Positions 3,765 through 16,930 of a stretch of DNA of 64,000 nucleotides are shown piece by piece; position 1 is the first letter of the stretch, and each line of letters starts with the position of its first letter. Source of the stretch: a virus (lineage: Duplodnaviria; Heunggongvirae; Uroviricota; Caudoviricetes). The notes beneath the pieces were generated by a model. The model was not told the DNA's origin. It was given only the letters and a program-made list of their open reading frames with translations, and searched no databases. Where the stretch lies: IMG/VR virus record IMGVR_UViG_3300024272_001997. One strand, written 5' to 3'. Both the position numbers and the translations under genes were made by a program.

Positions 3765-4153
3765 TGATGAGCGCTATTGAAACATTTGTGGTTCACAAAG
3801 AATGGTTAGATAGTATTGCTGGATTACCCTGTGAGACTCAGGATAGAATCATTGCGGAGTTCGTTCGATATGGCTGTGGACTGGACCCTGCGCACCCTGA
3901 GGACGCAATCGCGCAGTCTTTTGTGAATATTTTGAAAAATAGAATTGATTATAGTAAGGATCAATATGCAAAGAAAGTTGCAATGGGAAAAACTGCTGGG
4001 GCTAAGAAGAAAATTGATGACAGACAAATTTATGAGTTGGCGCAAGAAGGAAAAACTGCAACTGAAATTGCAACAATTTTGAATATATCTAAATCTTCTG
4101 TTGACCACAGTGATGGTTGGAGAAAGAGAAGAGAAAACGAATTTGTATTTTGA
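3764..4153 (+). CDS. helix-turn-helix DNA-binding protein (129 aa)
   Basis: Track ORF; AAAGGAGGGG RBS; C-terminal segment IYELAQEGKTATEIATILNISKSSV resembles sigma region 4 / LuxR-type HTH. Confidence 0.65.
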   Translation: MMSAIETFVVHKEWLDSIAGLPCETQDRIIAEFVRYGCGLDPAHPEDAIAQSFVNILKNRIDYSKDQYAKKVAMGKTAGAKKKIDDRQIYELAQEGKTATEIATILNISKSSVDHSDGWRKRRENEFVF

Positions 4154-4154
4154 T

Positions 4155-4313
4155 TTGCAAAATTTGTTGCAAAGTTGCAAAAATTGTAACAATATATTCG
4201 TGCAAAGTTTGCATTTTGCATTGCATTGTACAAATCTAACTTATAACTTACAAATGCAACAATTTTGCAAATTGAATTGCAATTTTGCAACTTAATTTTT
4301 GCAATAAATTGCA
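4155..4313. repeat. array of at least 9 perfect and about 6 variant TTGCAA palindromic hexamers at roughly 9-12 bp spacing (iteron array)
   Basis: Perfect copies start near 4155, 4167, 4175, 4265, 4276, 4285, 4297, 4308; variants TTGTAA, TTGCAT, ATGCAA between; lies immediately after the HTH gene stop. Confidence 0.8.
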
Positions 4314-4322
4314 AAAATTTTA

Positions 4323-4344
4323 GGGGACCCCTCCGGGGATCCCC
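4323..4344. other. GC-rich hairpin GGGGACCCCtccGGGGATCCCC (9-bp GC stem, one bulge)
   Basis: Read from sequence; not followed by a U-tract on either strand. Confidence 0.4.
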
Positions 4345-4366
4345 ATCATAAAGGAGATAATGGAGA

Positions 4367-4594
4367 ATGATATATCAAAGACCGAAAGGTAATGTAAGAT
4401 TTGCTTATGGTAGATTTGATGATTTACCATATGGAGCCGAAGAAGTAAAGATATTTATGGTACCTGGGGATCCAGTATTATATGTAGTACCAATTGGAGA
4501 TATTCCATATGCGTATGAGAAAAATGAACCAGAAATTCCAATGTCAGATAGGCAGTGTGAGGAGTTATTGGATTATTTTAGAGAGTACGTATAA
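4367..4594 (+). CDS. hypothetical protein (75 aa)
   Basis: Track ORF; AAGGAG at 4351-4356. Confidence 0.55.
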   Translation: MIYQRPKGNVRFAYGRFDDLPYGAEEVKIFMVPGDPVLYVVPIGDIPYAYEKNEPEIPMSDRQCEELLDYFREYV

Positions 4595-4601
4595 TCTTTA
4601 T

Positions 4602-4630
4602 TTGATTTTATAAAAAAATATTGTTATAAT
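4602..4630 (+). promoter_or_regulatory. sigma70-type promoter TTGATT-17-TATAAT
   Basis: TTGATTttataaaaaaatattgtTATAAT; a second candidate (TTGGAT-16-TATAAT) lies at 4568-4595. Confidence 0.45.
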
Positions 4631-4665
4631 TATTATAGTATAAAAGAAAAGGTGGAAAAGGTTAT

Positions 4666-4830
4666 ATGATGCTTGTAGATGAAGGTTATCTTCATGACAA
4701 TACTATCGTGCGCATCGGGGAAGAGATGGGAATCTTTAGAAAACCCGATGAAAGCAAAGTAGAATATGTCATGAGGGTCATTCAAGAACTTCAATTCAAA
4801 AAGCCCTATGTAGGGGTATTCAAAAAATGA
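4666..4830 (+). CDS. hypothetical protein (54 aa)
   Basis: AAAAGGTGGAAAAGG RBS; 55 codons to TGA at 4828-4830; below ORF-track cut-off. Confidence 0.4.
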   Translation: MMLVDEGYLHDNTIVRIGEEMGIFRKPDESKVEYVMRVIQELQFKKPYVGVFKK

Positions 4831-4887
4831 ATTGAAAAAATGAAATGAAAACCGAGGAACAAAATAAAAAATGAAATGAAAATCCGA
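4822..4887 (+). repeat. three tandem copies of AAAAAATGAA(A/T)TGAAAA (start-stop mini-ORFs) in leader of 4905 gene
   Basis: Copies at about 4822, 4835, 4866; last two extend to ...AAAA(C/T)CCGA. Confidence 0.5.
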
Positions 4888-4904
4888 TTGAAAGGAAAAG
4901 TAAA

Positions 4905-5360
4905 ATGGTTTTTAGCTATAATAATTTAATGTCTGCCGCAAAGTCTGGTCAGAGACTTGGTAAGTGGAAGGATTTGCCGGTCTTTTCTTGTGATAGAATG
5001 GGACTGGCGCAAAAAGGCAATGGTGCTTATTATGTCGTCTATGATGATGACAATGCTTTCGTGAAGAAGAGCGGTTCTATGTGGTTCAGATTTGGTTATC
5101 TGGATAAGGAAGGCTCTGTTCATGAGGACACTAAGCGAGAATATTTCCCCATCCGCACAGAGAAGGACAAGGAAGTCTTCTATTATAATGAGAAGAAAGC
5201 TACAGTGGAGTTTGCGCCTGTACCGACCGTACATACTACTGCTTCTTCTGGAACTACGACTGCGGATGTGAAACTGGAGATTGACGTTGAGGGAACCTTG
5301 AAGAAGGCGAGGGAAATGACTATTGAAGATTTGCTCGCAGGATTCAACTACGGACTCTAA
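4905..5360 (+). CDS. hypothetical protein (151 aa)
   Basis: Track ORF, GAAAGGAAAAG RBS. Confidence 0.6.
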   Translation: MVFSYNNLMSAAKSGQRLGKWKDLPVFSCDRMGLAQKGNGAYYVVYDDDNAFVKKSGSMWFRFGYLDKEGSVHEDTKREYFPIRTEKDKEVFYYNEKKATVEFAPVPTVHTTASSGTTTADVKLEIDVEGTLKKAREMTIEDLLAGFNYGL

Positions 5361-5453
5361 GTGGACTCGCTTCTGGAATAAAGTATTTCCGATCGTTGAG
5401 TGGTTAGAAGATTTGGGGGAGCTTATTGTGCTCTTGGATGATATATTTGATTA

Positions 5454-5479
5454 AGGAGGACTTCGGTCCTCCTTTTTTT
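5454..5479 (+). terminator. rho-independent terminator
   Basis: AGGAGGActtcgGTCCTCCT followed by TTTTTTT. Confidence 0.7.
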
Positions 5480-5571
5480 GTTGCTTTTGGAAGAGAATTG
5501 TGAGATTGTTCTGGCCGATCGGCCCCTGGACTATCCGATCGCTTTTCCTCGTCACCGTTACCGTTGGGGCA

Positions 5572-5606
5572 TAAAAAAATCCACCCTCATTTTCAGAGGG
5601 TGGGTT
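5572..5606 (-). terminator. rho-independent terminator for gene 5693..6160
   Basis: Minus strand reads CCCACCCTctgaaaatGAGGGTGG followed by ATTTTTTT. Confidence 0.65.
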
Positions 5607-5692
5607 CTAAAATTATCTTAGCGTAGCTCTTCTCTTGGTAGTTGTAGCTTAGTCAGAAATCATCTTATGAGAATTTCTTCACAACGAGAATC

Positions 5693-6160
5693 TTACTTCA
5701 TAATTTGAGCCAAAAATTCCTTTAGAGCTTCATCATCGCTCTTGGCGTGAATGGTGGCGGAACGCTTCTTAGGATTTAGACCAACCAGCTTATCCTCGGG
5801 GATAGCATCGATTGCGGTCTTCAGTTCCTTCATTGCGCCCATCAGGGCGAAAGTCTGATCCAGGGCCTCAACCAGAGTGTCCAGGTCATCGTCAGTGATT
5901 TCCATCTCATCCATGGCGGTGTTGCCAGTCAGATCAGCGTAATCACGGAACAGGTCGACCATCTTCAGACCCAGATCCTTTTTCTTTGCGGCCAGCTCCA
6001 CCTTGGCGACACGCTCTGCCTCGGCCTTACGGGCGGCCTCCTGCTCAGCACAGAAGTCAGACATTGCGGCGTTCATGGCATCTGCCATGGCCTGACCAAT
6101 TGCATTGATATCCTGACCATTGCGCAACTGGTCCAGGAAATAGTTCTTATCATAAACCAT
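5693..6160 (-). CDS. hypothetical coiled-coil protein (155 aa)
   Basis: Track ORF trimmed to Met with GAGGT RBS (MVYDKNYF...); the upstream Met lies inside the promoter. Confidence 0.6.
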   Translation of the reverse strand: MVYDKNYFLDQLRNGQDINAIGQAMADAMNAAMSDFCAEQEAARKAEAERVAKVELAAKKKDLGLKMVDLFRDYADLTGNTAMDEMEITDDDLDTLVEALDQTFALMGAMKELKTAIDAIPEDKLVGLNPKKRSATIHAKSDDEALKEFLAQIMK

Positions 6161-6197
6161 TGGTATATACCTCACATTTCTTATTTATTGTACTTAT

Positions 6198-6226
6198 ATT
6201 ATATCAAAAAATTTTATAAAAATCAA
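6198..6226 (-). promoter_or_regulatory. sigma70-type promoter class 2 (TTGATT-17-TATAAT, spacer tttataaaattttttga)
   Basis: Read on reverse complement. Confidence 0.5.
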
Positions 6227-6242
6227 ATCCGATCGGCGCTTT

Positions 6243-6273
6243 CTGCGTTCTCCGAACGCAGATTGGATTTTTT
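6243..6273 (+). terminator. hairpin CTGCGTTCtccGAACGCAG followed by attggaTTTTTT; overlaps candidate plus promoter TTGGAT-18-TATAAT (6264-6293)
   Basis: Read from sequence. Confidence 0.35.
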
Positions 6274-6299
6274 ATAAAAAAAATGTTATAATAAAAAAA

Positions 6300-6500
6300 A
6301 AGAACATTTTTACCGATCGGGACTTTCAATTCAATGTTTCGCCATATGAGAATTCCCGATCGGCCCTCCGGGGTGGGGTGCTAGATTTCGGGAGAACGGG
6401 GCATATGCGGAAGTCGCTAGAAGTAGCAGAAAAATTCCATATGGGGTATACCGATCGGAAAATCGGGCCCTGACCTCCGTTCAGGGCCCGTTGAACCACA
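6300..6500. ncRNA. ORF-less GC-rich segment apparently transcribed from both strands (minus class-1 promoter at 6506-6534, plus promoter at 6264-6293); contains CCGATCGG motifs and a 9-bp GC hairpin at 6467-6490
   Basis: No plausible ORF (6326..6517 begins inside the -10 element); hairpin GGGCCCTGAcctccgTTCAGGGCCC; CATATGG repeated. Confidence 0.3.
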
Positions 6501-6505
6501 CCCTT

Positions 6506-6534
6506 ATTATACCACAAGTCGAGGTATTTGTCAA
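6506..6534 (-). promoter_or_regulatory. class-1 consensus promoter TTGACA-17-TATAAT with no ORF downstream
   Basis: Reverse complement GGGGTTGACAaatacctcgacttgtggTATAATAAGGG. Confidence 0.6.
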
Positions 6535-6551
6535 CCCCTAAATCAAAAAAA

Positions 6552-6573
6552 AATCGACTGATTTCTCAGTCGA
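6552..6573 (-). terminator. terminator hairpin overlapping stop of gene 6566..6736
   Basis: ATCGACTGAgaaaTCAGTCGAT followed by TTTTTTTTT on minus strand. Confidence 0.55.
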
Positions 6574-6736
6574 TTTCTAAACAGCCATCCCAATGGAAGT
6601 GCGCCGTCACATGGAGGCTTGCACCGCACTCGGGGCAGATTGTGTAGGAAGTGCCGGTGACAAAATCGCCGTTGTCTTCCAGATCGTCGAACTCGTCCAC
6701 ATCAAAGGACGCACCGCAGTAAGGACATTCACCCAT
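6566..6736 (-). CDS. zinc-ribbon protein (56 aa, CxxC...CxxC)
   Basis: GGAGGTATGAAAA RBS; MGECPYCGASFDVDEFDDLEDNGDFVTGTSYTICPECGASLHVTAHFHWDGCLEID; below track cut-off. Confidence 0.5.
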   Translation of the reverse strand: MGECPYCGASFDVDEFDDLEDNGDFVTGTSYTICPECGASLHVTAHFHWDGCLEID

Positions 6737-6749
6737 TTTTCATACCTCC

Positions 6750-6938
6750 TTAGCAATCATAGGTGTAGCAACCTTCGTAGGGGTCGAAGCCGAAGTCATC
6801 GTCAATGTCTTCGGGTTCGTAGTCATCGTCGTACTCACAGGGGGCGGGAGTGCCATCATCGGGATAGTGGCAACGGGGGTATTCTTCGTCCTCGTCCTTC
6901 CAGTAGTAACCGCAATTAGAATCAGCACAGGTAGCCAT
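6750..6938 (-). CDS. acidic Cys-containing protein (62 aa)
   Basis: Track ORF; GGAGGAAAAC RBS. Confidence 0.5.
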   Translation of the reverse strand: MATCADSNCGYYWKDEDEEYPRCHYPDDGTPAPCEYDDDYEPEDIDDDFGFDPYEGCYTYDC

Positions 6939-7015
6939 TTTGTTTTCCTCCTTGTTTGATTTTCTTTATTATACCATGTCGGGGGGCATTTGTCAAGCCC
7001 CCCGACAACTTTTTT

Positions 7016-7609
7016 TTAGAAAGGCAGTTCGTCTGCCAGTCCGGCAACCTCATTCCATTCCTCGACAATCGCAGGAATATCGATGAAAGGACGGCTTGCC
7101 ATGTAGTCCGCCATGTGGACACATCTGTCCACATTGGTAAAGGGTCTGTCCTCTTTCTCGGTAGACCACTGACCCATGTGAGCGCAGACAGCGTTCAGAA
7201 GCAGAAAATGGGGTTCGCCGTAACCAGTGACCAGACAGTAATCACGGAAAGCAGTCGCCGCATTTCTGGCGTGATTCTTGTACTCGGCCTTGTCGAAACC
7301 ATCCAGACCATACTTGACAGTATCGTGAATGATACAGGCGACAATGACGAAATCCTTGTATTCTTCCTTCATGTATGCGTAAGAACTCATGCGGAGCAGT
7401 TCTTCGGCGAACATGACAACCGCCTTGGTGTGGCGAACCAGACCGCCAACGCCCTGGGACATCTTGGGGTGATACTTGCCAGAACTGGAAGCACCGTCTG
7501 TCCAGAAGTAGTCGGGAACTCGGTCGATCAGGTATCCCTTGACCGCCATGCGGAGATCCTCGTCCAGGATGAGGGACAGTTCCCTCTCAAAAAGCTTGAT
7601 GTTCTTCAT
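7016..7609 (-). CDS. HD-domain phosphohydrolase (197 aa)
   Basis: Track ORF trimmed to Met preceded by GAGGAATTGATACCC; contains H...HD motif (GKYHP, IIHDTVKYG) typical of the HD superfamily. Confidence 0.7.
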   Translation of the reverse strand: MKNIKLFERELSLILDEDLRMAVKGYLIDRVPDYFWTDGASSSGKYHPKMSQGVGGLVRHTKAVVMFAEELLRMSSYAYMKEEYKDFVIVACIIHDTVKYGLDGFDKAEYKNHARNAATAFRDYCLVTGYGEPHFLLLNAVCAHMGQWSTEKEDRPFTNVDRCVHMADYMASRPFIDIPAIVEEWNEVAGLADELPF

Positions 7610-7656
7610 GGGTATCAATTCCTCTCTCATTTGATGTACTCATTATAGCATAGGAT

Positions 7657-7833
7657 TTAGAGTTTGTCAAGTACTTTTTTAGAAAATTCTGTGTATTCAA
7701 TACACATTTTCAAAGTATCTTTTTCAACTGTCACACGCACAGAACTAACAAGGGGATTTTGTATCATCAGTTCGCCGGCCATTTTCTTGACCTCTGAATA
7801 GGGGATACCCTTACCAATTTCAATTCTAGCCAT
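7657..7833 (-). CDS. hypothetical protein (58 aa)
   Basis: Track ORF trimmed to Met with GGAGGG RBS. Confidence 0.45.
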   Translation of the reverse strand: MARIEIGKGIPYSEVKKMAGELMIQNPLVSSVRVTVEKDTLKMCIEYTEFSKKVLDKL

Positions 7834-7857
7834 TGTTTTTCCCTCCATGGTTCTGGG

Positions 7858-8028
7858 TTACCCCAGAACCACAAAATTTTTGCCGTAGTGGTCGTGAACG
7901 CCTTCTTCTACATTGTAGGTGATGGACAGTTCATCCATGTAAATGACCTTGGAATCACCAAAACCGAGTTCTTCCATGGTCTGAAGCTGGCGGAGCAGTT
8001 CACTAACAGTAATGCACTTTTTATTCAT
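7858..8028 (-). CDS. hypothetical protein (56 aa)
   Basis: GAGGAGGTAACC RBS; MNKKCITVSELLRQLQTMEELGFGDSKVIYMDELSITYNVEEGVHDHYGKNFVVLG; below track cut-off. Confidence 0.45.
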   Translation of the reverse strand: MNKKCITVSELLRQLQTMEELGFGDSKVIYMDELSITYNVEEGVHDHYGKNFVVLG

Positions 8029-8149
8029 GGGGGTTACCTCCTCTTGATTTATAATACAATTATACCACCGATTCCGGGAAAATCAAGTTGGAGTATTGCA
8101 CAAAAAATGCGCCCCAAAAATTGTTGGAGTTGGTTATTTTGCCGAAAAA

Positions 8150-8236
8150 CCGGCCCGCGCGCACGTAAAGGGCCGGCCGAAATTTGTGCAAATTGCACAA
8201 AAACGAAGAAAAACCGGGATTTTTCCCGGTTTTTCT
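8150..8236 (+). ncRNA. degenerate copy of GC-hairpin/terminator cassette
   Basis: Hairpin CCGGCCC-13nt-GGGCCGG then GCCGAAATTTGTGCAAATTGCACAAAAA then bidirectional terminator AAACCGGGAtttttCCCGGTTT; upstream promoter degenerate. Confidence 0.25.
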
Positions 8237-8603
8237 AACTTTTTGCCTTTCTTTTTGCGATTAAAGTCAATTCGTAGGCATTTTCACCAATTTTGAAGCT
8301 AATTTGACGAGTTTTGTTGGTGATTTCCACTGAAACGTAGCCTTTTTCCGCTAAAAAGTGGGCGATTTCCGCAATTACAGCCTCTTTTTCCGGATTTTCG
8401 GTGGGTTTTCGTGCGGATTTGGTGGTTTTTGGCGATTTTGTGTCCGCATTAGCGTTTTTCATAGCCAGTTTGTGTGCTTCTGGACTCAAATCAAAGTCCA
8501 TTTGCTCTCCCCTGTCGATGCATTTATCATCGGCAAGAATGGCTTCGGCTTCGCTTCTGGAACACTTGAGAGAACGCATGATGCGTTCGATTTGGCTATC
8601 CAT
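8235..8603 (-). CDS. hypothetical protein (122 aa), paralog of 11293..11649; TAG is its stop codon
   Basis: Track ORF; shares N-terminal SR(S/E)EAIxLxD(D/E)DKxIDRGE motif with its paralog; stop codon TAG at 8235-8237 followed by the terminator. Confidence 0.6.
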   Translation of the reverse strand: MDSQIERIMRSLKCSRSEAEAILADDKCIDRGEQMDFDLSPEAHKLAMKNANADTKSPKTTKSARKPTENPEKEAVIAEIAHFLAEKGYVSVEITNKTRQISFKIGENAYELTLIAKRKAKS

Positions 8604-8702
8604 GGTGGTTGCCCCCTTTCCTTACTTAGTATAGCACATTTGGGGGGATTTGTCAAGAGGAAAGTTTGGGGGAGAATTTCTCCCCCTCTCCCCTCTCTCT
8701 GG

Positions 8703-9095
8703 TTAGACCAGAGAGAAGAAAGCCTTTCTCTTGTCCTCGGTTCTCTTGACCTGGCCTGCATCAACCATCTGGCGAACCAGAGCGGACATTCTCTGGTTGG
8801 TCATGGTGTCAGGCAGGTTGGGAACCTTTTTCAGCAGTTCGGACACGGTGAACAGCTGATTGGGATTGGCTTCCATCACAGCCAGAACACCGGCCTTGAT
8901 GGTTGCGTTGGCTTCCTGCTGAGCGGTGGGCTTCTTCTCAGCGGAGTTCTTCTTGGCCAGCAGTTCCTGCTCGTGGGCGATGAACTCAGCCAGCATGGGG
9001 TTGTTGGCGACTTCGGGGATGTTCGCAATCATAGCGAACTTCTGAGCCTTGGTCAGCTTGGTGGATGCGGAAGCGGAAGAAGTAGTGTTAGCCAT
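8703..9095 (-). CDS. putative winged-helix protein (130 aa), paralog of 11729..12106
   Basis: Track ORF; about 70 percent identity to paralog over whole length; GAAAGGAATTGATACT-ATG leader. Confidence 0.65.
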   Translation of the reverse strand: MANTTSSASASTKLTKAQKFAMIANIPEVANNPMLAEFIAHEQELLAKKNSAEKKPTAQQEANATIKAGVLAVMEANPNQLFTVSELLKKVPNLPDTMTNQRMSALVRQMVDAGQVKRTEDKRKAFFSLV

Positions 9096-9366
9096 AGTAT
9101 CAATTCCTTTCGGTTTTAGCGACTTGAACCTGTCGATGATTTATTCTGTAAGAGGTGTTCCTCTTTACATTCTTATTATAGCACATTCGGCTCGGTTTGT
9201 CAAGAACTTTTTTTCTTTTTTTTTCTTGACCTTGGAGGGTTGCCCCTCTCTTTTTGTACCCTCATTGTATCACATCTTGGGCGGTTTGTCAAGAGGTTTT
9301 TTCAACTTTTTTTTTCGCTCGGCTCGCTCTGTCCTGCGTTGTTGCCTGTCCCTCACTGACAAGGGT

Positions 9367-9395
9367 ATTATACCATAGCCAGAAGCGGATTGCAA
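9367..9395 (-). promoter_or_regulatory. orphan promoter TTGCAA-17-TATAAT, back-to-back with plus promoter at 9454
   Basis: Reverse complement TTGCAAtccgcttctggctatggTATAAT; no ORF downstream before next promoter. Confidence 0.45.
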
Positions 9396-9453
9396 TAGGC
9401 AAAGTATACAAAATCGGGAGAAATAATTTGTGCATTTTTTTCGCATTTTCCTC

Positions 9454-9482
9454 TTGACAAATTGCTGGGGGTATGGTATAAT
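9454..9482 (+). promoter_or_regulatory. orphan consensus promoter CCTCTTGACAAA-17-TATAAT on plus strand
   Basis: TTGACAaattgctgggggtatggTATAAT; fires toward 3' end of the convergent gene 9569..10006. Confidence 0.65.
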
Positions 9483-9488
9483 GGAAAT

Positions 9489-9576
9489 TCTGCCCGGGCA
9501 CACTCGCGCCCGGGCCGCCGAAATGTCAATTGGTAATTTTGCACAAAAAAGTGAGGGTTGCCCCTCACTCATTTTT
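9489..9576 (+). ncRNA. candidate small RNA: 5' GC hairpin GCCCGGGC-acactcgc-GCCCGGGC plus terminator hairpin GTGAGGGttgcCCCTCAC-tcaTTTTT
   Basis: Starts about 7 nt after -10, ends at intrinsic terminator that also terminates the minus gene; no ORF. Confidence 0.35.
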
Positions 9577-10006
9577 GAATGACCGTTTCCAGATTGATTC
9601 CGGCGCTGACTTCTTCCCAGTTCTCCACATTGTCAACATGGACAACCTTGTGACAGCCATTGACCATCATCAGAGAATAGGTTGCGTTCTCATAACCGCA
9701 CAGAACCTGGACAACCTCTTTGCCGATTGCCATGCCGAAGCCGGCTTCCCATGCCGTACCAGAGTCGGAATACATACCGAAGTTGAGAACCATGACCACA
9801 TCACAGTCATGGATGGCTTCAATGTCCATTTCAAAGACACGCTTTGCCCAGTCAGAGTTCGGCAAGTCCCATGCGTTGGGAACTTCATGCTCCTGGGGTA
9901 CATGAACCGGATAACCTGCGGAGCGCAGACGAGAGATGGTTTCCTTGTAGACTACCAATTCAGTAGCATTGAAGAACGGCGAAGCCAGATAGATTTTCTT
10001 TTTCAT
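9569..10006 (-). CDS. nucleoside 2-deoxyribosyltransferase-like protein (145 aa)
   Basis: Track ORF trimmed to Met after GGAAAGGAACTGAACACT; KIYLASPFF...MVLNFGMYSDSGTAWEAGFGMAIGKEVV matches the NDT/Rcl family signature. Confidence 0.65.
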   Translation of the reverse strand: MKKKIYLASPFFNATELVVYKETISRLRSAGYPVHVPQEHEVPNAWDLPNSDWAKRVFEMDIEAIHDCDVVMVLNFGMYSDSGTAWEAGFGMAIGKEVVQVLCGYENATYSLMMVNGCHKVVHVDNVENWEEVSAGINLETVIQK

Positions 10007-10062
10007 AGTGTTCAGTTCCTTTCCTTTTTGTATTCTCATTATACCATGAGAAAAGGCTTTTG

Positions 10063-10398
10063 TCAAGCCTTTTCTACTCGGTAGAAGAAAAATTTATTGA
10101 CAATTCTTTTTGCCTTTTTGTCGTGGCAAAAATAAATACTTCCGAACAGATGTGTGGAATCGTCCATCAATTTGAGATTTTGAATTGCTTCCAATTTCAC
10201 AGGCTTGCTTACATTGCGGAAGAGTTTCCAGAAGAAAACGAATGGGAAAAGCAGGATTTCCAGAATAATTTCCAGAATACCAGTGATGAGCAGATAGGGA
10301 AGCTGGATGAAGTTCATCCATCTCTGGCCCCACAGTTCTTCGTGAATGAAAGACAGGATAATGTATCCGGCAAGAATACCTAATAAGAAATTCAACAT
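10063..10398 (-). CDS. membrane protein (111 aa)
   Basis: Track ORF trimmed to Met with GAGGTG RBS; two TM helices. Confidence 0.5.
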   Translation of the reverse strand: MLNFLLGILAGYIILSFIHEELWGQRWMNFIQLPYLLITGILEIILEILLFPFVFFWKLFRNVSKPVKLEAIQNLKLMDDSTHLFGSIYFCHDKKAKRIVNKFFFYRVEKA

Positions 10399-10462
10399 TT
10401 TACACACCTCATTTGTTTTTCTTTATTATAGCATGAATTGGGGGTTTTGTCAACCCCCAATT

Positions 10463-10771
10463 TTACGGAAGTTCATCGGGATAGCAGAAGCATTCCCATG
10501 CGATACTCTCCCAAGTTTCCATACACTTGGAAGTGTTGCACAGCCAGATCGTGACAAAGAAAGTATTGACAACAGGCAGACCAATCATCAAAGCGCACTG
10601 GATGAGACTGATGAAAGTCTTTGCCCAGTTCGTAGGCTGTTTGACCCTGACCATGCCCTTGGCCTTGCACTCCTTAAAAGTGGGAATCATAGCCAGACTG
10701 GCGAACACGAACAGATACAGGAAAGCCAGAATTGCGCTTGCGACATAGACCCAGAAGAAAATTTCTAACAT
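10463..10771 (-). CDS. membrane protein (102 aa)
   Basis: Track ORF trimmed to Met with GAGGT RBS; 3 hydrophobic helices. Confidence 0.5.
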   Translation of the reverse strand: MLEIFFWVYVASAILAFLYLFVFASLAMIPTFKECKAKGMVRVKQPTNWAKTFISLIQCALMIGLPVVNTFFVTIWLCNTSKCMETWESIAWECFCYPDELP

Positions 10772-10843
10772 AACATTTACCTCACTCATTTAATTTTCTT
10801 TATTATAACATAGGTTTGCGAATTTGTCAAGAGTTATTTTGTA

Positions 10844-11056
10844 TCAAAGGGACATTTTCTGTCCCCAGATACAACGCTCAAAGGCAGGCTTGTAGACATT
10901 GTTCCAAATGAACTCCATCTCGTTGTAAGCTTCTCTGTCCTCCACAATCATTGCGTAGAACTGAACTGCTCCGAACGCCTGATGAATCCACAGTTCTTTG
11001 CCGTCCTTCTGGCACTGAGCCAAAAGCCAATCGATGTGCTGTTTCAGTTTATCCAT
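10844..11056 (-). CDS. hypothetical protein (70 aa)
   Basis: Track ORF trimmed to Met after AGGAGGTAATCACC; upstream Mets lie in promoter. Confidence 0.5.
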   Translation of the reverse strand: MDKLKQHIDWLLAQCQKDGKELWIHQAFGAVQFYAMIVEDREAYNEMEFIWNNVYKPAFERCIWGQKMSL

Positions 11057-11175
11057 GGTGATTACCTCCTTGATTTGTACCCTAATTATAGCATAGGTTT
11101 CGGGATTTGTCAAGGGGTTTTGCAAAAATAATTTTTGCAAGAAAAATTGCTGAAATAGGGGGTTAGTAGCGAAAT

Positions 11176-11234
11176 GCCGGGCGCCACACTCGTCAGCGCC
11201 CGGCCATTATACCACATTCTTTTGAAAATGTCAA
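11176..11234 (-). promoter_or_regulatory. class-1 promoter immediately abutting GC hairpin GCCGGGCGC-cacactcgtca-GCGCCCGGC (inverted-orientation copy of the cassette)
   Basis: TTGACAttttcaaaagaatgtggTATAAT then hairpin 1 nt later; no terminator follows. Confidence 0.4.
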
Positions 11235-11263
11235 GCATTATTTTTTCGTCAAAATGCACAAAA

Positions 11264-11294
11264 AATCTGTCCGCGCTGGGCGGACAGATTTCTC
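11264..11294 (-). terminator. terminator for gene 11293..11649
   Basis: TCTGTCCGCccagcGCGGACAGA followed by TTTTTTGTGC on minus strand. Confidence 0.55.
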
Positions 11295-11649
11295 AGGAGC
11301 GGGGACACGCAAGGGTGACTTTGTACTTCGTGCCGTTGTGGGTGAACAGGAACTCACGCTCGGCATTGGTGACATTGAACTCGGTGATTCCCAGTCCATT
11401 CAGACCTTCCATCATTGCGGAACACAGCTCTGCCTTTTCCGGCTTGGCTTTCTTCTCTCTTTTGGTGGTGGTCTGCTTGCGGTCTGCCTGTCGTGCTTTC
11501 TTTGCGCCCGCTTCCAGTTCGGGGTCAAGCTCAAACAACTTTTCGCCCCTGTCGATTCGCTTGTCTTCGTCCATCAGTTCGATGGCTTCCTCACGGCTGA
11601 TGTTCAGCGACTTCATCAGCTTCTGGATTTTCTCTTCCATCGGGGTCAT
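11293..11649 (-). CDS. hypothetical protein (118 aa), paralog of 8235..8603
   Basis: Track ORF. Confidence 0.6.
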   Translation of the reverse strand: MTPMEEKIQKLMKSLNISREEAIELMDEDKRIDRGEKLFELDPELEAGAKKARQADRKQTTTKREKKAKPEKAELCSAMMEGLNGLGITEFNVTNAEREFLFTHNGTKYKVTLACPRS

Positions 11650-11728
11650 CTCCTTTCTGTACTAAGTATAGCACAGATTGCTGGATTTGTCAAGGGGAAA
11701 TTTTGGGGGAGTTTCCTCCCCCATCGGG

Positions 11729-12106
11729 TTACGCAATGGCGAAGAACGCCTTGCGCTTGTCCTCGGAGCGGACAACCTGACCCGCATCGACCATCTGACG
11801 GACGAGTGCGCTCATGCGCTGATTGGTCATGGTGTCGGGCAGACCGGGCACTTCCTTGAGCAGTTCGGACACGGTGCGCTTCTTGCCGTCAGCCAGAACC
11901 TCCAGAACGGCGGTCTTGATTACGGCATTTGCCTCCTGCTGGGCAGTGGGCTTCTTGTCGGCGGAGTTCTTCTTTGCCAGAAGCTCAACTTCGTGGGCGA
12001 TGAACTCGGACAGCATGGGGTCAGCCTTGACGGCGGGCAGTTCAGCCAGAATGGCGAACTTCTGAGCCTTGGTCAGACGAGCGGAAGAAGAAGTAGTGTT
12101 AGCCAT
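11729..12106 (-). CDS. putative winged-helix protein (125 aa), paralog of 8703..9095
   Basis: Track ORF trimmed to MANTTSS... matching its paralog's start. Confidence 0.65.
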   Translation of the reverse strand: MANTTSSSARLTKAQKFAILAELPAVKADPMLSEFIAHEVELLAKKNSADKKPTAQQEANAVIKTAVLEVLADGKKRTVSELLKEVPGLPDTMTNQRMSALVRQMVDAGQVVRSEDKRKAFFAIA

Positions 12107-12284
12107 AGTATCGATCTCCAATCTTGCGGTAGGTCGCAACCCAAATTTGATTTATCTGTAAGAGGTGTTCCTCTTTACATTCTTATTGTATCACATCTTG
12201 AGCCAGTTGTCAAGAGGTTTTTTGAATTTTTTTTTGGCTTTCACTCCACCTAGTCCCTAATACAGCCTCGGGATTGGTTCACAT

Positions 12285-12380
12285 TTATATTCCGCACAAC
12301 GGAGCGACCGTGCGGTCGAGGACTTTGTCGTCATGGTCTGACACGACTCTCGTGGGTCTTGTCTCAACGACTTCTGCCAT
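12285..12380 (-). CDS. possible micro-protein (31 aa)
   Basis: Sits 17 nt downstream of a class-1 promoter with the conserved leader GGGTACAAAAGAGGGAAGC-ATG; MAEVVETRPTRVVSDHDDKVLDRTVAPLCGI. Confidence 0.25.
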   Translation of the reverse strand: MAEVVETRPTRVVSDHDDKVLDRTVAPLCGI

Positions 12381-12689
12381 GCTTCCCTCTTTTGTACCCT
12401 TATTATAACACATCTTGGGGAGTTTGTCAAGAGGTTTTTTTTCAGATTTCCTTCTGTTCGGTCATCTTGTGGTCACTTGCTCCGCAAGCCCTACCGCCTC
12501 CGACCACGGCTAACCTCTTGACTTCTCTTACATTGTATCACAACTTGGGGGATTTGTCAAGGGGTTTCTTGAAGTTTCTTCAAGAAAGTTGCGTGCCGGA
12601 AGGTTGGGTCGTACACAGCCTCTGCCAACAGTTCGACGCCTAGCGTGGGTTTCCCAACTCCCGAGGCGTTCCCTCCCCTTGACACCAAT

Positions 12690-12718
12690 ACTATACCACA
12701 TCTGCCCCCAGATTGCAA
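12690..12718 (-). promoter_or_regulatory. orphan promoter TTGCAA-17-TATAGT back-to-back with plus promoter at 12776
   Basis: Same architecture and flanking sequence as 9367-9395. Confidence 0.4.
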
Positions 12719-12775
12719 TTGGCAAAATACACAAAATCGGGAAAAATAATTATTTATTATTTGTGCAATTTTCCT

Positions 12776-12805
12776 CTTGACAAATTGGCTGGCGGTGTGG
12801 TATAA
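12776..12805 (+). promoter_or_regulatory. orphan consensus promoter on plus strand (18-bp spacer)
   Basis: CCTCTTGACAaattggctggcggtgtggTATAAT. Confidence 0.6.
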
Positions 12806-12811
12806 TAAAAT

Positions 12812-12875
12812 TTCGGCGCCCATCAACCGTGGGCGCCGCGCCGAAAAAGCCACCCCAAAAATGGGGTGGCTTTCG
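12812..12875 (+). ncRNA. candidate small RNA: hairpin CGGCGCCCA-tcaaccg-TGGGCGCCG then GCGCCGAAAAA then terminator hairpin AGCCACCCCAaaaaTGGGGTGGCT
   Basis: Same architecture as 9489..9576 with compensatory stem changes. Confidence 0.35.
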
Positions 12876-12877
12876 TA

Positions 12878-13306
12878 TCAGCTGGGCAGACCTCCGCCCA
12901 TAACCTGAATCACCTTCAAAACCATGTCCTCGGCTGACATACACTCTTCGGGTTCCTCGGGGGGCAGGAGTTCGGCTTTCTGCTGTTCGGCCAGGGCGGA
13001 CATGACCTCGAAAATGTTGGGGATGATTTCTCGCTCGACCTCGAGTTCGGGTTCGGGGATGGGTTCCTCGTCCTGTTCCCAGAGGTGCTTCATCAGCACC
13101 CCCAGAATCATCAGAGAGAACTCGTCCGTGGCGAACTGGTCGGGGTGGTTCACCAGAGCCAGAACCTCGCCGGTGTAGCCGTCGCACACATGGGCATGAT
13201 TGCCGTTCGTGTCAGCTCTCAGCAGTTCCAGGATTGCGATTTCGGGGTCGTCAGTCTTGACAGTGACCTCAGCGTCGGAGTAAAAAACAGAGATTACATA
13301 CTTCAT
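12878..13306 (-). CDS. acidic hypothetical protein (142 aa)
   Basis: Track ORF; AAAGGAAAGGAACTGATACCT-ATG leader. Confidence 0.6.
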   Translation of the reverse strand: MKYVISVFYSDAEVTVKTDDPEIAILELLRADTNGNHAHVCDGYTGEVLALVNHPDQFATDEFSLMILGVLMKHLWEQDEEPIPEPELEVEREIIPNIFEVMSALAEQQKAELLPPEEPEECMSAEDMVLKVIQVMGGGLPS

Positions 13307-13405
13307 AGGTATCAGTTCCTTTCCTTTGTTGTACCAACATTATAACATGGATTAGTTGGTTTGTCAAGAGGTTTTTGAAAAATTTTTTTTAGGGGATGGG
13401 GCGGA

Positions 13406-14077
13406 TTACTCCGCCCACTTGGGGAAACACTTGTTGTATTCCTTGCCCTTGGCATCCCAGCAATGCACATTCTTGGTGAACTTCTTGTGTGTCCGCAGAC
13501 AGCGGACAAAAATCTGCATTTCAATCATGGCATCAGCCAGAGCCGTGTGTTCCTCGATGAAGTCGGGGTCGTTAGTGATGAACGCATACACGGCTTCCGC
13601 AGTGGTCGCACAAGTGTTCTTGCTTCTGGACTGGAAGCCATTTGCACGGCAAAACTTGGCATAGCCTTTCTGGTGGCAGATGGTCTGGGTTGCCATCAAC
13701 CAAAGGTCGATGAACTCGAACTCCTCAGCCAACGCACGGCAGGCAGTTTTGGTAAGGTCGAAAGCGGAATTGTAAGCACAGATGTACTTGACGCCGTAGA
13801 AGTGGCACAGATTGGAAACAATGCTGACTGCCTCGGCTTCGGTAGTCACCGCAGACATTTCACCGCTTGCCAGTCTCTTGGCATAGATGGGGAAGTTCTT
13901 CTTGGCATAGTCATCGTTGCGGATTTCCTCATAGTGTTCCATCACCAGAAGATTGGTGGTTGCGAAGATGTTACCCTCTCTGTCATGGATGGTACAGCCG
14001 ACATTGTACATTCCGGAGGGAGTGGAAGCACCGCCTACAGTCTCGGTGTCCAGAGTACAGAAAATTGTCTTATTCAT
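13406..14077 (-). CDS. DEDDh (DnaQ-like) 3'-5' exonuclease (223 aa)
   Basis: Track ORF trimmed to Met after AAAGGAAAGGAATTGATACCA; Exo I FCTLDTETVG, Exo II YNSAFDL, Exo III HTALADA. Confidence 0.75.
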   Translation of the reverse strand: MNKTIFCTLDTETVGGASTPSGMYNVGCTIHDREGNIFATTNLLVMEHYEEIRNDDYAKKNFPIYAKRLASGEMSAVTTEAEAVSIVSNLCHFYGVKYICAYNSAFDLTKTACRALAEEFEFIDLWLMATQTICHQKGYAKFCRANGFQSRSKNTCATTAEAVYAFITNDPDFIEEHTALADAMIEMQIFVRCLRTHKKFTKNVHCWDAKGKEYNKCFPKWAE

Positions 14078-14145
14078 TGGTATCAATTCCTTTCCTTTGA
14101 TGAACTTATTGTATCACAAAATAGCCGGTTTGTCAAGGGATTTTT

Positions 14146-14595
14146 TTAGAATCCCTGACACATTTTTTCCAGCTTCGCCCAGTTGACGGAGAAGACATTG
14201 CGGAAACCCTCAAACTCCATCTCGGCGTAGTCCATGAAGTTCCGCAGTTCAGAGTAGCAGGGCAGATGGCCATCGAACCGCAGACCGAACTCACGAGCCA
14301 GCTTCTTGCACCACAGTTCATCCAACTGGTCTTCGGTGAACTTCTCGTGGGTCTTGGGGTTGATAACCACACGGACTTCCTTGTGGTAGGTAGTCTTCTC
14401 AGTGCGGACGACCTGCACCAGACCATACTCCCGGGCAGTTTCCAGACAGACGGAAGCGGAATAGGGATAGCGACCATCGGAGAAGCGGTCACGAACCTCA
14501 TTGAACTGCTTCTTGGTGAACTCAACAGGCAGAGCCTTGAAGGTTTCACGAGTCTTGGGAGCCAGTGCCATCATAGAAGAGAAATTGTGTGCCAT
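14146..14595 (-). CDS. hypothetical protein (149 aa)
   Basis: Track ORF preceded by class-1 promoter at about 14660-14688. Confidence 0.6.
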   Translation of the reverse strand: MAHNFSSMMALAPKTRETFKALPVEFTKKQFNEVRDRFSDGRYPYSASVCLETAREYGLVQVVRTEKTTYHKEVRVVINPKTHEKFTEDQLDELWCKKLAREFGLRFDGHLPCYSELRNFMDYAEMEFEGFRNVFSVNWAKLEKMCQGF

Positions 14596-14969
14596 AATAT
14601 TTTACCTCATTTCATTTATTTGGTGGGGCTTACCATCGTTTCCCTCACCTTGTATTTGTATTATAGCATAGATTGTTTGGTTTGTCAAGAGGTTTTCTCA
14701 AAAAATTCCGGACTTTTTTGATTATCTCCGATACTTCTTGCCTCAAAAGACCTGTTTTAGATTGTTGCCCCAGCTCATTCCTTGTACCCTCGGGCAAGGA
14801 CTATGTCAGTCCGCAACTTCTCTCTTTCCGCTTTCTCTTGGCGATTTTCTCCGTCGAGGTTCCCCTCTTGACACAGTCATTGTACCACAGATTTTGGGAT
14901 TTGTCAACTCGTTAAAATACACAAATAATCGCCGAAAATAAATGCCTAGGTTGGTTATTGTGCCAAATT

Positions 14970-15058
14970 CGGCGCGCCTGGACCGTGGGCGCGCCGCCGA
15001 ACTTTTGTGCAAAATGACGAAAAATCCCTTTCCATTTCTGGAAAGGGATTCCAAAATC
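14970..15058 (+). ncRNA. degenerate hairpin/terminator cassette
   Basis: CGGCGCGCC-tggaccgtg-GGCGCGCCG then GCCGAAC...; terminator ATCCCTTTCCAtttcTGGAAAGGGAT; upstream promoter weak (TATTGT -10). Confidence 0.25.
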
Positions 15059-15428
15059 AAATCACATTGAAAAGGACAATCTTTTCGGGAATGTCCTTCC
15101 ACTCGTTCCGACCGACCTGGATGCGGAGGGTGCGTCCGGTGATGAACTCAGTGCGCTGGACTGCGCCGACCTTGACCAGCTTCCGCACATTCTGAGAAAT
15201 CAGCTGAACAGTGGGAGCATGATACTCGGGGTTGTACTTCTCCATCGGGTAGCCGTAAGACTCCCATCTCTTTCTGCCGACTACCTCGGCAATCTGTGTG
15301 GCAGTAGCACCGCACTCGCCGAAACCAGATAAGGCGCTCAGAATGTCGGACAGGTACTTGTATCTTTTTCGGTTCTCACGGGTAGAACACTCAGCGACAG
15401 CAACATGGGCAAGATTAGGATTATTCAT
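15057..15428 (-). CDS. putative winged-helix DNA-binding protein (123 aa)
   Basis: Track ORF; GATATQIAEVVG...LVKVGAVQRTEF pattern; GAAAGGAATTGATACT-ATG leader. Confidence 0.55.
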   Translation of the reverse strand: MNNPNLAHVAVAECSTRENRKRYKYLSDILSALSGFGECGATATQIAEVVGRKRWESYGYPMEKYNPEYHAPTVQLISQNVRKLVKVGAVQRTEFITGRTLRIQVGRNEWKDIPEKIVLFNVI

Positions 15429-15503
15429 AGTATCAATTCCTTTCAGTTCTCTTTTGTTGTAATTATTGTATCATAGGTTTTCGGATTTGTCAAGAGGAAA
15501 TTC

Positions 15504-15944
15504 TCAGATTTCTCTGAGAATTTCCATGATGTTCTGTACATCGTGGGGGATGCCAGTCCATCCAGTTCTGTTCCGTTCCTCATCATCGAACAGAATGTCG
15601 AGAGGGGTTCGGCAGAACATTTCCTTAGGAGTGCCATAGGGAACGATGTTGATTTCATCCCAATGGACGGAGGGCAGATGTTCCGCAAGCCAGACCTTTT
15701 TGACTTCGGTAACTCTTGCGTTGTACTCTTTGCTTCCGCTCTTGGAAGTCCAGGAGATAACGGAGAGCCGATAGCCTTGCTTCTGGAGTGCGTTCAGCTT
15801 GCGAGCCAGAGCGGAGAGGTTCAGCAGAGGTTTTGCGATTGCGTAGGGAGTGGTATCTTCAGCTTCCAGATAGGGGAGCCAGTTCTTGACACCGTAGAGG
15901 TCAGCGATTGTGCCGTCCATGTCGAAGTTAATTGTAACAGTCAT
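15504..15944 (-). CDS. HAD-superfamily 5'(3')-deoxyribonucleotidase-like protein (146 aa)
   Basis: Track ORF; N-terminal FDMDGTIADL (DxDGT motif I); size and motifs fit the NT5C family. Confidence 0.65.
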   Translation of the reverse strand: MTVTINFDMDGTIADLYGVKNWLPYLEAEDTTPYAIAKPLLNLSALARKLNALQKQGYRLSVISWTSKSGSKEYNARVTEVKKVWLAEHLPSVHWDEINIVPYGTPKEMFCRTPLDILFDDEERNRTGWTGIPHDVQNIMEILREI

Positions 15945-15994
15945 TTGATTCAGTTCCTTTCCTTTTTTGTACCTTAATTATAACACGGAATACC

Positions 15995-16195
15995 TCATTT
16001 GTCAAGAGGTATTCCAACAATTTTTCTGATTTCTTCATCTTTTTTGTAGTGTGTGAAAGACTTGTCAAAGCAACATTCCACGATCCACAAATCATCTCCG
16101 GTGGAGTAGTTCACGACTTTCCACATTGTACCATGTTCGGGGAACACCAGACCGCACCGCACATGAGTCAGGGATCTACATTTAATTTTATCCAT
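15995..16195 (-). CDS. hypothetical protein (66 aa)
   Basis: Track ORF; AAGAGGTGAGATAA-ATG. Confidence 0.5.
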   Translation of the reverse strand: MDKIKCRSLTHVRCGLVFPEHGTMWKVVNYSTGDDLWIVECCFDKSFTHYKKDEEIRKIVGIPLDK

Positions 16196-16250
16196 TTATC
16201 TCACCTCTTGATTATTGTATCATAGTTTGGAGATTTTGTCAAGCCCTTTT

Positions 16251-16811
16251 TTAGTAGGGCTTGGCAACTCTCTTTGCTTCCTTGGGGTCAATCAGAACAC
16301 CAACAAAGCGGTCATTCAGCTGATAGGCTTCTTCATACTTGCCGATGAAATAAGCACGCATCCGACTTTCACAGGCGATTGTGGCGGAGAGGTTGTGGCA
16401 GGGTTCGCACATTACAACTTCAAGCCGAACTTTTGCACCTGCCAACTTTTCATACTCGGCGACTTCCTGCTGAAATCTTTCCTGCGGTTGTTCGCTTGTA
16501 CCAATCTTGCTTGCGTACAGCAGACCAGATTCCACAAAGTACACATGGAGCAGATAGCAAGCAGAGCCGAACACTTCCCGCACCTTCCAATCAATGTAAT
16601 GCTTGGTGTGGTTGGTTCTACCTCTTCCGCACTTAAAAGCGACCTTGTCTTTTTCCTTGACGGTGAACCGCTTCATCCATGCTTCATACTGATTTGCCTT
16701 GTAAGCGGTCAGAACTGCTTTCCATGCCTTCTGGATGTGTCCTGCGGACAAGCCTGCGTTCTTACGGCGATTGTATTCTTTTACCAGACCCTCAAAAATA
16801 ACCTCATTCAT
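16251..16811 (-). CDS. hypothetical protein (186 aa); weak GIY-YIG-like segment
   Basis: Track ORF trimmed to MNEVIFEGL with AAGAGGAACACAAA RBS; VYFVESGLLYASKIGTS...ERFQQE loosely resembles GIY-YIG. Confidence 0.55.
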   Translation of the reverse strand: MNEVIFEGLVKEYNRRKNAGLSAGHIQKAWKAVLTAYKANQYEAWMKRFTVKEKDKVAFKCGRGRTNHTKHYIDWKVREVFGSACYLLHVYFVESGLLYASKIGTSEQPQERFQQEVAEYEKLAGAKVRLEVVMCEPCHNLSATIACESRMRAYFIGKYEEAYQLNDRFVGVLIDPKEAKRVAKPY

Positions 16812-16930
16812 TTTGTGTTCCTCTTTCCGGGTTGCCCCTTGATTTATAAGCCTAGTATACACTATAAATCACGATTTGTCAAGCATTATTTTGGGATTTT
16901 TCAAAAAAAGTTTTTTGTGCAAATTGCCTA

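Follow-up and report, generated by a model that had tools for sequence, protein, structure and literature searches.

What is specified by the short intergenic element at positions 9454-9576 of the IMG/VR virus record IMGVR_UViG_3300024272_001997, where a consensus promoter points against all the surrounding genes and runs almost at once into a GC-rich hairpin? A preliminary description of the 64,000-nucleotide stretch that we analysed (the window) had taken this element and its counterparts for a family of candidate small RNAs, each with its own promoter and terminator. We find that the module is a composite boundary element of the early region of the phage, the invariant core of which is a strand-specific stem-loop pointing against the early genes. 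The small-RNA reading holds in so far as the hairpin is conserved and covarying and the promoters are conserved, but about half of the copies have no promoter and plus-sense terminators are rare.

The first point to note is that three perfect promoters of the form TTGACA-17/18-TGnTATAAT do lie on the plus strand, at 9454-9482, 12777-12806 (with an 18-nt spacer) and 16931-16959, facing opposite to the genes as had been described and antisense to some 30 early promoters. The promoter at 9454 is of the sigma-A type (TTGACA-17-TGGTATAAT, with the conserved spacer AAATTGCTGGGGG), a type shared by the relatives, and the one at 16931 has a near-identical copy in relative L001. All three are kept perfect at the corresponding modules of related phages, so that in having a promoter of its own the unit does resemble a stand-alone small-RNA gene. 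A perfect GC hairpin begins 7-9 nt past each promoter, well within the ∼10 nt first reported, and is followed by (CG)CCGAAA and then by a second hairpin. By chance the shared 30-nt promoter pattern would be expected 0.01 times; the three plus-strand promoters are thus real, as are the GC hairpins that follow them, and both lie far above chance.

The hairpin of the 9454 copy (9492-9515, plus strand) has the form GCCCGGGC/8/GCCCGGGC, with 8 bp and the loop ACACTCGC; it starts 9 nt past the -10 box and scores 25.2 bits in the covariance model described below. On its 3' side (9516-9529) stands the conserved CGCCGAAA, which in the position matrix reads CC-N-AAA, and then TGTCAA, the remnant of a minus-strand -35 box. 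The hairpin at 12814-12838 (CGGCGCCCA/7/TGGGCGCCG; 9 bp, 7-nt loop) is followed by CGCCGAAAAA, and that at 16968-16994 (CGCGCCG/13/CGGCGCG; 7 bp, 27 nt overall, 47.8 bits) by CCGAAAAA. The compensatory changes originally seen between the copies of the window stem in part from shifts of register within GC sequence of low complexity, and genuine covariation is shown only with the related phages; the 3' halves of the 12814 and 16968 hairpins differ by a single base.

The covariance model, built on thirteen 27-nt copies, gave eight matches in the window, every one on the plus strand (6454, 8140, 9480, 11167, 12802, 14960, 16958 and 19951), with the next best at 13 bits. Together with a decayed copy at ∼18790 this makes nine modules, all on the plus strand, and GC hairpins of this kind are confined to 6.4-20 kb of the window. 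The seven copies of the preliminary description are all genuine, but those at 6464-6490 and 19960-19988 had been missed.

That description had also proposed a covariance-model search of related phages, and this proved productive. A pattern scan of IMG/VR recovered the same promoter-hairpin unit with different stems, and a protein-seeded search recovered sixteen early regions, none exceeding 20 kb, the longer of which each hold 25-33 gene-strand promoters and four antisense promoters. A metagenome scan added 98 loci, about 70 of them with a properly spaced TTGACA and a GC hairpin directly after an initial transcribed GGAAAT(T). The model matched 61 times in the relatives and 164 times in 72 metagenome loci; the orientation is uniform within each locus, with no mixed-strand locus, and consensus promoters neighbouring the metagenome modules lie on the opposite strand in 517 cases and on the same strand in 137. 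Several modules at a time were also present on contigs of Clostridia metagenome-assembled genomes (MAGs; Oscillospiraceae, Acutalibacteraceae and Lachnospiraceae), in agreement with the Clostridia hosts proposed for phAss-like phages (PMC10607447).

The pairing of the stem is strongly maintained across these copies. In alignments that were fitted to the model, whose stems are GC-only and in which template switching could mimic selection, 93.2% of cells were paired in the relatives and 95.3% in the metagenome loci, against 68% after shuffling in both sets; none of 500 shuffles reached the observed value in either set, and with slid partners pairing was at most 55%. Double-sided changes occur at seven of the eight pairs in the relatives (58 cells) and at all eight in the metagenome loci (234 cells). 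Nearly all are flips between G-C and C-G, wobble pairs making up ∼1% of cells, and template switching can produce such compensating palindrome changes in one event (PMC8794818). Read within these limits, the element has the conserved, covarying secondary structure of a small-RNA gene.

The hairpin is 27 nt long in ∼80% of copies, independently of the length of the stem. Constant positions are AAA at -4 to -2, C1, C6 and G7, C15 and G16 (with T), C21 and G22, G27, CC at 28-29 and AA at 31-32, which gives conserved flanks of AAAWT before and CCNAAA after the hairpin, plus CG(T) in the loop. Pairs 2-5 vary freely with compensation, whereas the closing C-G, C6-G22 and G7-C21 are constant. Free covariation at pairs 2-5 combined with fixed bases elsewhere points to a folded nucleic acid that is recognised by a protein, and the hairpin is probably a protein handle. 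A sequence-specific operator palindrome in double-stranded DNA is excluded, because the arms vary freely with compensation, conservation being limited to pairs 1, 6 and 7; of the two possibilities originally set against each other, RNA structure or protein-binding palindrome, it is the conserved and covarying structure that is found in homologous phages.

The relation of the hairpin to the promoters is equally regular. Of 161 distinct modules, 79 carry an antisense promoter, 8 one directed at the hairpin from its opposite side, 1 both and 75 neither. The distance from the -10 box to the hairpin is 7-9 nt in 74 of the 79 modules with an antisense promoter, which would place the plus-strand start site at the foot of the hairpin. 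The rare promoters that face from the other side lie 1-5 nt (or 15) from it, and at 1-5 nt their transcripts would begin within the stem and be unable to fold. This asymmetry of spacing, together with the perfect 29-30 nt promoters kept in relatives, favours a role as plus-sense RNA wherever a promoter exists. Whether a module bears a promoter or not is mostly common to the corresponding modules of relatives, the genes of which share 70-77% DNA identity, and some promoter-less copies retain a TATTNT -10-like box at the unchanged spacing.

What would become of a plus-strand RNA depends on the next hairpin, which had been taken in each case for a bidirectional terminator. This is true of 9550-9569, the terminator of the convergent nucleoside deoxyribosyltransferase gene, which has U tracts on both strands (plus-sense tail CAUUUUUG) and alone among the three offers a U tract that could serve in the plus sense. 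The other two serve the minus strand only: at 12849-12870 the U tract abuts the hairpin in the gene sense and the plus-sense tail is UUUCGUAU, just UUUCG, and at 17004-17027 a good U tract is present on the minus strand alone, with the plus-sense tail UUUACAGC. The predicted transcript length of 65-90 nt is therefore secure for the 9454 copy but not for the other two promoter-bearing copies, and within the window only the former has the same-strand intrinsic terminator, and hence the discrete 3' end, of a small-RNA gene. More widely, among promoter-bearing modules the next hairpin has a U tract (at least 5 of 8 bases) in the minus sense in 35 of 68 cases and in the plus sense in 6 of 68. Judged by these tails, the downstream hairpin belongs to the gene strand as its terminator and is predicted to function rarely in the plus sense, and most plus-strand RNAs would run on antisense rather than end as discrete RNAs of 65-90 nt. 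For the 9454 copy, the RNA is predicted to fold into two hairpins (z = -4.7) and a discrete product of ∼90 nt is plausible.

The genes met head-on are the nucleoside deoxyribosyltransferase gene (9569-10009, minus strand; Pfam PF05014, Nuc_deoxyrib_tr), a 142-aa gene (12878-13306, minus strand) and a small gene (17026-17259, minus strand), the last two without a Pfam family. As had been proposed, the geometry fits transcripts antisense to the 3' ends of these genes, which would cover the complement of the terminator and, if unstopped, the 3' coding end; by the same geometry they would be convergent with, and complementary to, an mRNA 3' end in the manner of lambda OOP. A type I toxin-antitoxin arrangement was rejected, as the convergent genes are ordinary.

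The reading that we prefer, with a probability of roughly 40%, is that these modules are head-on antisense units with a 5' clamp, which keep the early operons insulated from one another and regulate early mRNAs at their 3' ends. A host sigma-A promoter, present in about half of the copies, would fire against the early genes from the foot of the hairpin. The RNA would open with a very stable 5'-terminal hairpin, continue through an A-rich linker and then carry the complement of the terminator of the convergent gene; most such RNAs would go on into the 3' end of that early gene, and the 9454 copy could stop at ∼90 nt. 5'-terminal stem-loops act as RNA stabilisers, and the GC clamp would in this way stabilise the antisense RNA. 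Antisense pairing of the lambda OOP kind, polymerase collision or both would then insulate neighbouring strong early operons that are closely packed. For the cis-antisense overlap of a convergent mRNA 3' end, lambda OOP is the precedent (PMC5869508). As the promoter-less copies retain the hairpin, it would in addition have a separate role of its own.

Several observations weigh against this reading. In the 75 of 161 modules without an antisense promoter the hairpin is still perfect, still covaries and falls into the same loop classes, and a function purely as plus-sense RNA leaves them unexplained. Since these copies are equally conserved, the hairpin may also act as DNA or as read-through RNA of minus sense, and the conserved core is the hairpin rather than a small-RNA gene made up of promoter, hairpin and terminator. 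The sequences give no call on the strand that folds, either by wobble counts (9 plus-sense, 7 minus-sense) or by folding energies, which favour one strand in 27 hairpins and the other in 24 (p=0.61), the two main loop classes favouring opposite strands. A simple 5' stabiliser has no need of a conserved loop or conserved flanks. Finally, template switching during replication can make and keep near-perfect palindromes without selection on RNA (PMC8794818).

A related proposal, which we put forward as a tentative possibility, takes the 27-nt hairpin and its fixed flanks as the recognition site of a putative phage or host protein that punctuates early transcription units in TAG-recoded Clostridia phages, for example a hairpin-dependent boundary, termination or processing factor. 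Alternatively, the hairpin could serve as a 5'-clamped decoy RNA, made in abundance, by which a hairpin-binding protein of host defence or RNA decay is titrated. In either form the antisense promoters would mark the expressed version of the element.

The strongest competitor to antisense insulation, which we nevertheless regard as doubtful, is a DNA-level element, in which the hairpin would be folded as single-stranded or extruded DNA on one strand and recognised by a phage or host protein, such as an HUH nuclease or recombinase, a primosome or helicase loader, or a polymerase of the hairpin-promoter type, the promoters merely helping to open the DNA. Folded DNA is the sole molecular form common to modules with antisense promoters, with opposite promoters and with none. 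The almost wobble-free stems without strand bias, the fixed total length of 27 nt, the conserved flanks and loop and the strictly uniform orientation are all consistent with it, as are the AT-rich inverted repeats that surround the hairpin in one subfamily (L079). However, the copies occur only at early-operon boundaries, with none in the other 45 kb of the window, which argues for a role linked to transcription rather than replication. Loops of 7-13 nt disfavour cruciform extrusion. In the phAss-1 paper neither a phage RNA polymerase nor a transposase or integrase is reported, and the start of the antisense promoter falls exactly at the hairpin foot.

The original reading as discrete small RNAs acting in trans, whether by sequestering a host protein that binds hairpins, as a decoy or sponge would, or as base-pairing regulators, appears unlikely. 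It would have three strongly expressed hairpin RNAs per genome and treat the promoter-less copies as relics or as weakly expressed, an idea to which the TATTNT boxes retained at the same spacing lend some weight. The perfect promoters are conserved clade-wide, and a constant loop and flanks around a variable stem are typical of a protein-binding hairpin; the 9454 copy, moreover, has a proper plus-sense terminator and the two-hairpin fold described above. Against this, ∼90% of the promoter-bearing copies have no plus-sense terminator, the hairpin is equally conserved without a promoter, and there is no matching Rfam family: Rfam 15 gave no match at gathering thresholds in the whole window, with only weak sub-threshold matches elsewhere, and in E-value mode nothing relevant on 6.3-20 kb. 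A hammerhead-like combination of a stem with GAAA was likewise rejected, the 5' CUGAUGA core being absent from the sequence, in agreement with the Rfam result.

Quite unlikely, in our view, is an RNA element of the gene strand, that is, a back-up terminator or a processing or binding site met only by polymerases that read through. Eight of the nine hairpins of the window do sit 10-60 nt behind a minus-strand terminator (the ninth, at 19960, is ∼210 nt from the nearest), and the minus-sense tail of A/U, A/U, UUU is nearly invariant, with A at plus-strand position -3 in 129 of 129 copies. Some promoter-less copies have UUUUU or AUUUU tails. As an intrinsic terminator in the minus sense the element has the GC stem and a tail of A/U, A/U, UUU, Y, C, but its U tract is short and usually begins with AA, conserved-sequence loops of 7-13 nt are atypical of terminators, and a simple scan lists as terminator-like only the hairpin at 12838-12814. 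The primary terminators look strong in any case, and the promoters at 6534 and 11234, which lie between primary terminator and hairpin, would defeat themselves.

That the modules have no function of their own, being repeated promoter/terminator cassettes that serve as substrates for recombination whilst template switching perfects the palindromes, is very unlikely, although both processes have precedents in PeSL shuffling (PMC4122927) and in palindrome evolution (PMC8794818). A duplicated two-gene cassette does lie between modules (8.1-9.6 kb and 11.2-12.9 kb, 71-81% DNA identity), and homologous flanking genes adjoin different module types in different phages. Across 161 distinct copies drawn from many samples, however, positions are conserved, the length is fixed and the orientation is strict, all of which speaks against it, as do the maintained perfect promoters of 29-30 nt, and the copy at ∼18790 shows how neutral decay looks.

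Hardly credible is an RNA anti-CRISPR (Racr), a solitary CRISPR-repeat mimic directly behind a promoter: nine different stems per phage, 27-nt hairpins and loops of 7-13 nt are to our knowledge unlike known CRISPR repeats, the promoter is absent in half of the copies, and a scan of 185,579 species' genomes with one stem variant (the most frequent stem together with its handle) turned up at least 120 loci, each of them a single match, with no arrays among the matches listed, most of these being chance matches in high-GC bacteria and those in Clostridia being phage-like contigs with the same modules. The promoter immediately upstream, the stem-loop, the 8-nt CGCCGAAA 'handle' and the lack of cas genes nearby do resemble the published definition of solitary repeat units (PMC10651486). 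An antitermination leader of the nut, put or LoaP type was also rejected, since there are no plus-strand genes for ∼5-13 kb downstream and the hairpin that comes next lacks the form of a plus-sense terminator.

The general order of the module, read along the minus strand, is an intrinsic terminator, a TTTTGTGCA box, sometimes a minus-strand promoter or its remnant, the GC hairpin, AAATT, the plus-strand promoter or a homologous flank without a -35 box, a TTTGTGCA box and the next minus-strand promoter. Copies without a plus-strand promoter depart from this in different ways. At 6464-6490 (plus strand, 41.5 bits) a minus-strand consensus promoter (6534-6506) faces the hairpin with its -10 box 15 nt away, and the terminator is at 6549-6578. 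The plus-strand modules at 8150-8176 (51.3 bits) and 14970-14996 (CGGCGCGCC/9/GGCGCGCCG, 55.6 bits) lack the -35 box, with left flanks of TGGTTATTTTGCCGAAAAA and TGGTTATTGTGCCAAATT and terminators at 8207-8236 and 15021-15052, respectively. Both had been listed as degenerate; they do lack a promoter, but their hairpins are intact, and of the three copies so listed only that at 18790-18835 (plus strand) has lost the stem, along with the promoter, its counterpart in relative L017 being intact and promoter-bearing. The flank of the promoter-less copies, TGGTTATTNTG, was considered as a middle or late promoter and rejected, as the motif was found in modules only.

The copy at 11176-11204 (plus strand, 35.3 bits) had been described as inverted and without a terminator, and neither holds. 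It scores 35.3 bits on the plus strand against 9.9 on the minus strand, its loop CACACTCGTCA matches the plus-sense loop of the 9492 hairpin and the flank to its left is what remains of a plus-strand promoter, so it is not inverted; the terminator is at 11259-11295. To its right a perfect minus-strand promoter (11234-11206) abuts the hairpin at 1 nt and would fire into it. The last module, at 19960-19988 (plus strand, 25.3 bits), has no promoter and a stem of 11 bp with one T.C mismatch; between it and the terminator at 20200-20228 are ∼210 nt (19990-20200) without an obvious open reading frame (ORF).

A further motif, TTGTGCA, occurs at 9428-9434 (plus strand), upstream of the 9454 promoter, where an upstream promoter element would sit. 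All 11 sites in the window fall within the 6-21 kb early region and 10 of them inside modules; TTGTGCA may be a site for a regulator. The sites (8103-18790) typically lie 9-20 nt upstream of a -35 box or right after a terminator U tract, and one of them is part of a perfect 17-bp palindrome, TTGTGCAAATTGCACAA, at 8184-8200, between the hairpin of the 8150 module and its terminator.

The region that holds the modules is dense in promoters. Between 6500 and 20000, some 30 perfect or near-perfect TTGACA-17-TGnTATAAT promoters lie on the minus strand within 14 kb, about one per small gene, with the extended -10 consensus pattern TTGACAAA...TGnTATAAT. Each precedes a small gene, and we take 6.4-20 kb to be an early region that would depend on the host polymerase. 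Several of the minus-strand promoters stand in tandem before tiny or absent ORFs (for example 9395, 9292 and 9203; 12718, 12560, 12430 and 12213). The paralogues of the duplicated cassette are 8235-8603/11293-11649 and 8703-9095/11729-12139, and hairpin modules bound the cassette on both sides. G+C is 43-50% at 6.4-20 kb and ∼34% across most of the remaining window (mostly 31-39% in the late region); phAss-1 has a matching split, with ∼50% at 95-136 kb and ∼35% at 5-35 kb.

We take this uncultured virus to be a phAss-like, TAG-recoded phage of gut Clostridia, akin to phAss-1 and to large Enterococcus siphoviruses. A capsid-like protein (30988-32127) has 46% identity to that of phage phAss-1 (OQ749652, human gut) and 40% to its counterparts in Enterococcus phages of 134-142 kb. 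The plus-strand late genes (22000-64000 in the window, for example 39284-48673, 48774-54374 and 24840-26603) are recoded at TAG, as are those of phAss-1 (PMC10607447). Reading through TAG turns 39284-48673 into an ORF of 3129 codons with 36 in-frame TAGs, of tape-measure size as in phAss-1; other read-through ORFs have 1866, 970 and 967 codons, and a terminase-like ORF is likewise interrupted by TAG. ARAGORN found no suppressor tRNA in the 64 kb window, nor any other tRNA or tmRNA. Pfam and PHROGs searches with the large proteins of the window gave little besides structural and terminase matches.

In phAss-1 itself (L013) there is no match to the covariance model, though other GC hairpins with face-to-face promoter pairs are present. 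At 35715-35860 and 37918-38010 of that genome, facing consensus promoters ∼32 nt apart enclose a different GC hairpin and are followed by a TGCACAAA box and a terminator; these sites could represent an ancestor or a sister of the module. Elsewhere, one Clostridia MAG contig (CALZDP010000038, the L079 named above) has six hairpin modules within 4 kb (4029-7941), with inverted AT-rich repeats on both sides (TATATTATATAT ... ATATATAATATA), each module thus forming one large imperfect palindrome. In another relative (L004, 4619-4830) promoter and hairpin are followed by a good ribosome-binding site and a same-strand ORF of 27 codons (MNCLIRKHHQADFQVGWGRLARPLKSH), which is not hydrophobic; no ORF resembling it was present among the other copies inspected. 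The 402 kb record IMGVR_UViG_3300032167_000002 contains two different early regions of this phage group ∼200 kb apart (L015 and L022), which could reflect a chimeric assembly or a concatemer, or else an element of very large size. In annotated phages, megablast of 8-20 kb gave no match and blastn of one module gave promoter-like fragments only, whilst a looser pattern run on viral contigs (TTGACA..TGGTATAAT..CCGAAA) returned, beyond the loci already collected, just four unrelated chance matches.

If the promoter-bearing copies are expressed, they would add a level of regulation that is widespread among large, TAG-recoding gut and rumen phages, a clade of which little is known, and if our reading is true, a head-on antisense unit with one conserved hairpin at its centre would close every early operon. 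The 161 natural variants offer a test case for how dozens of consensus-strength promoters are insulated within 14 kb, for whether 5'-terminal GC clamps act as stabilisers or as protein handles, and for the share of covariation in GC palindromes that is due to selection and that due to template switching. The covariance model and motif are ready for annotating the early regions of metagenomic phage contigs.

The element is new to Rfam 15 and to annotated phage records, and the phAss-1 paper makes no mention of promoters, hairpins or terminators; the themes it combines, namely cis-antisense phage RNAs, promoter-terminator cassettes and protein-bound hairpins, are known. A close likeness is to lambda OOP and to RatA and SR4, the 3'-overlapping antitoxin RNAs of type I toxin-antitoxin systems, in which an orphan promoter convergent with a protein gene gives a short non-coding RNA complementary to the 3' end of the mRNA and bounded by the terminator region of the convergent gene. 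Here, in contrast, there are three to four copies per genome within a larger repeated boundary module, the RNA would start with a conserved 27-nt GC hairpin, most copies have no plus-sense terminator, and the convergent genes are ordinary early genes such as that for nucleoside deoxyribosyltransferase. With the PeSL elements of T4-like phages the module shares short terminator/promoter composites repeated between small early genes, with flanked cassettes duplicated and shuffled, as seen here in ∼30 promoters and nine boundaries within 14 kb. PeSLs, however, place promoter and stem-loop alike on the gene strand, in T4-like myoviruses, whereas here the hairpin and its promoter are antisense, the hairpin being additional and constrained in sequence, and the lineage is one of Clostridia siphoviruses with a different host polymerase context.

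There are other resemblances too. Lambda nut boxB, HK022 put and LoaP leaders also place a hairpin with variable stem and conserved loop after a strong promoter and before a terminator, but here there are no same-strand genes downstream, the terminator is not plus-sense and there are copies of the hairpin that have no promoter. Solitary repeat units (Racr) share a phage stem-loop directly after a promoter and the absence of cas genes; our stems differ between copies, their size and loop are unlike known repeats, and no matching array appears among the matches listed. REP/BIME palindromes, attC sites, IS200/IS605 ends and N4 hairpin promoters are likewise GC-rich, post-gene, conserved in structure and strand-specific. 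What sets the present modules apart from these is that no associated HUH nuclease, recombinase or polymerase was identified here, and that the copies lie only at early-operon boundaries, tied to consensus promoters.

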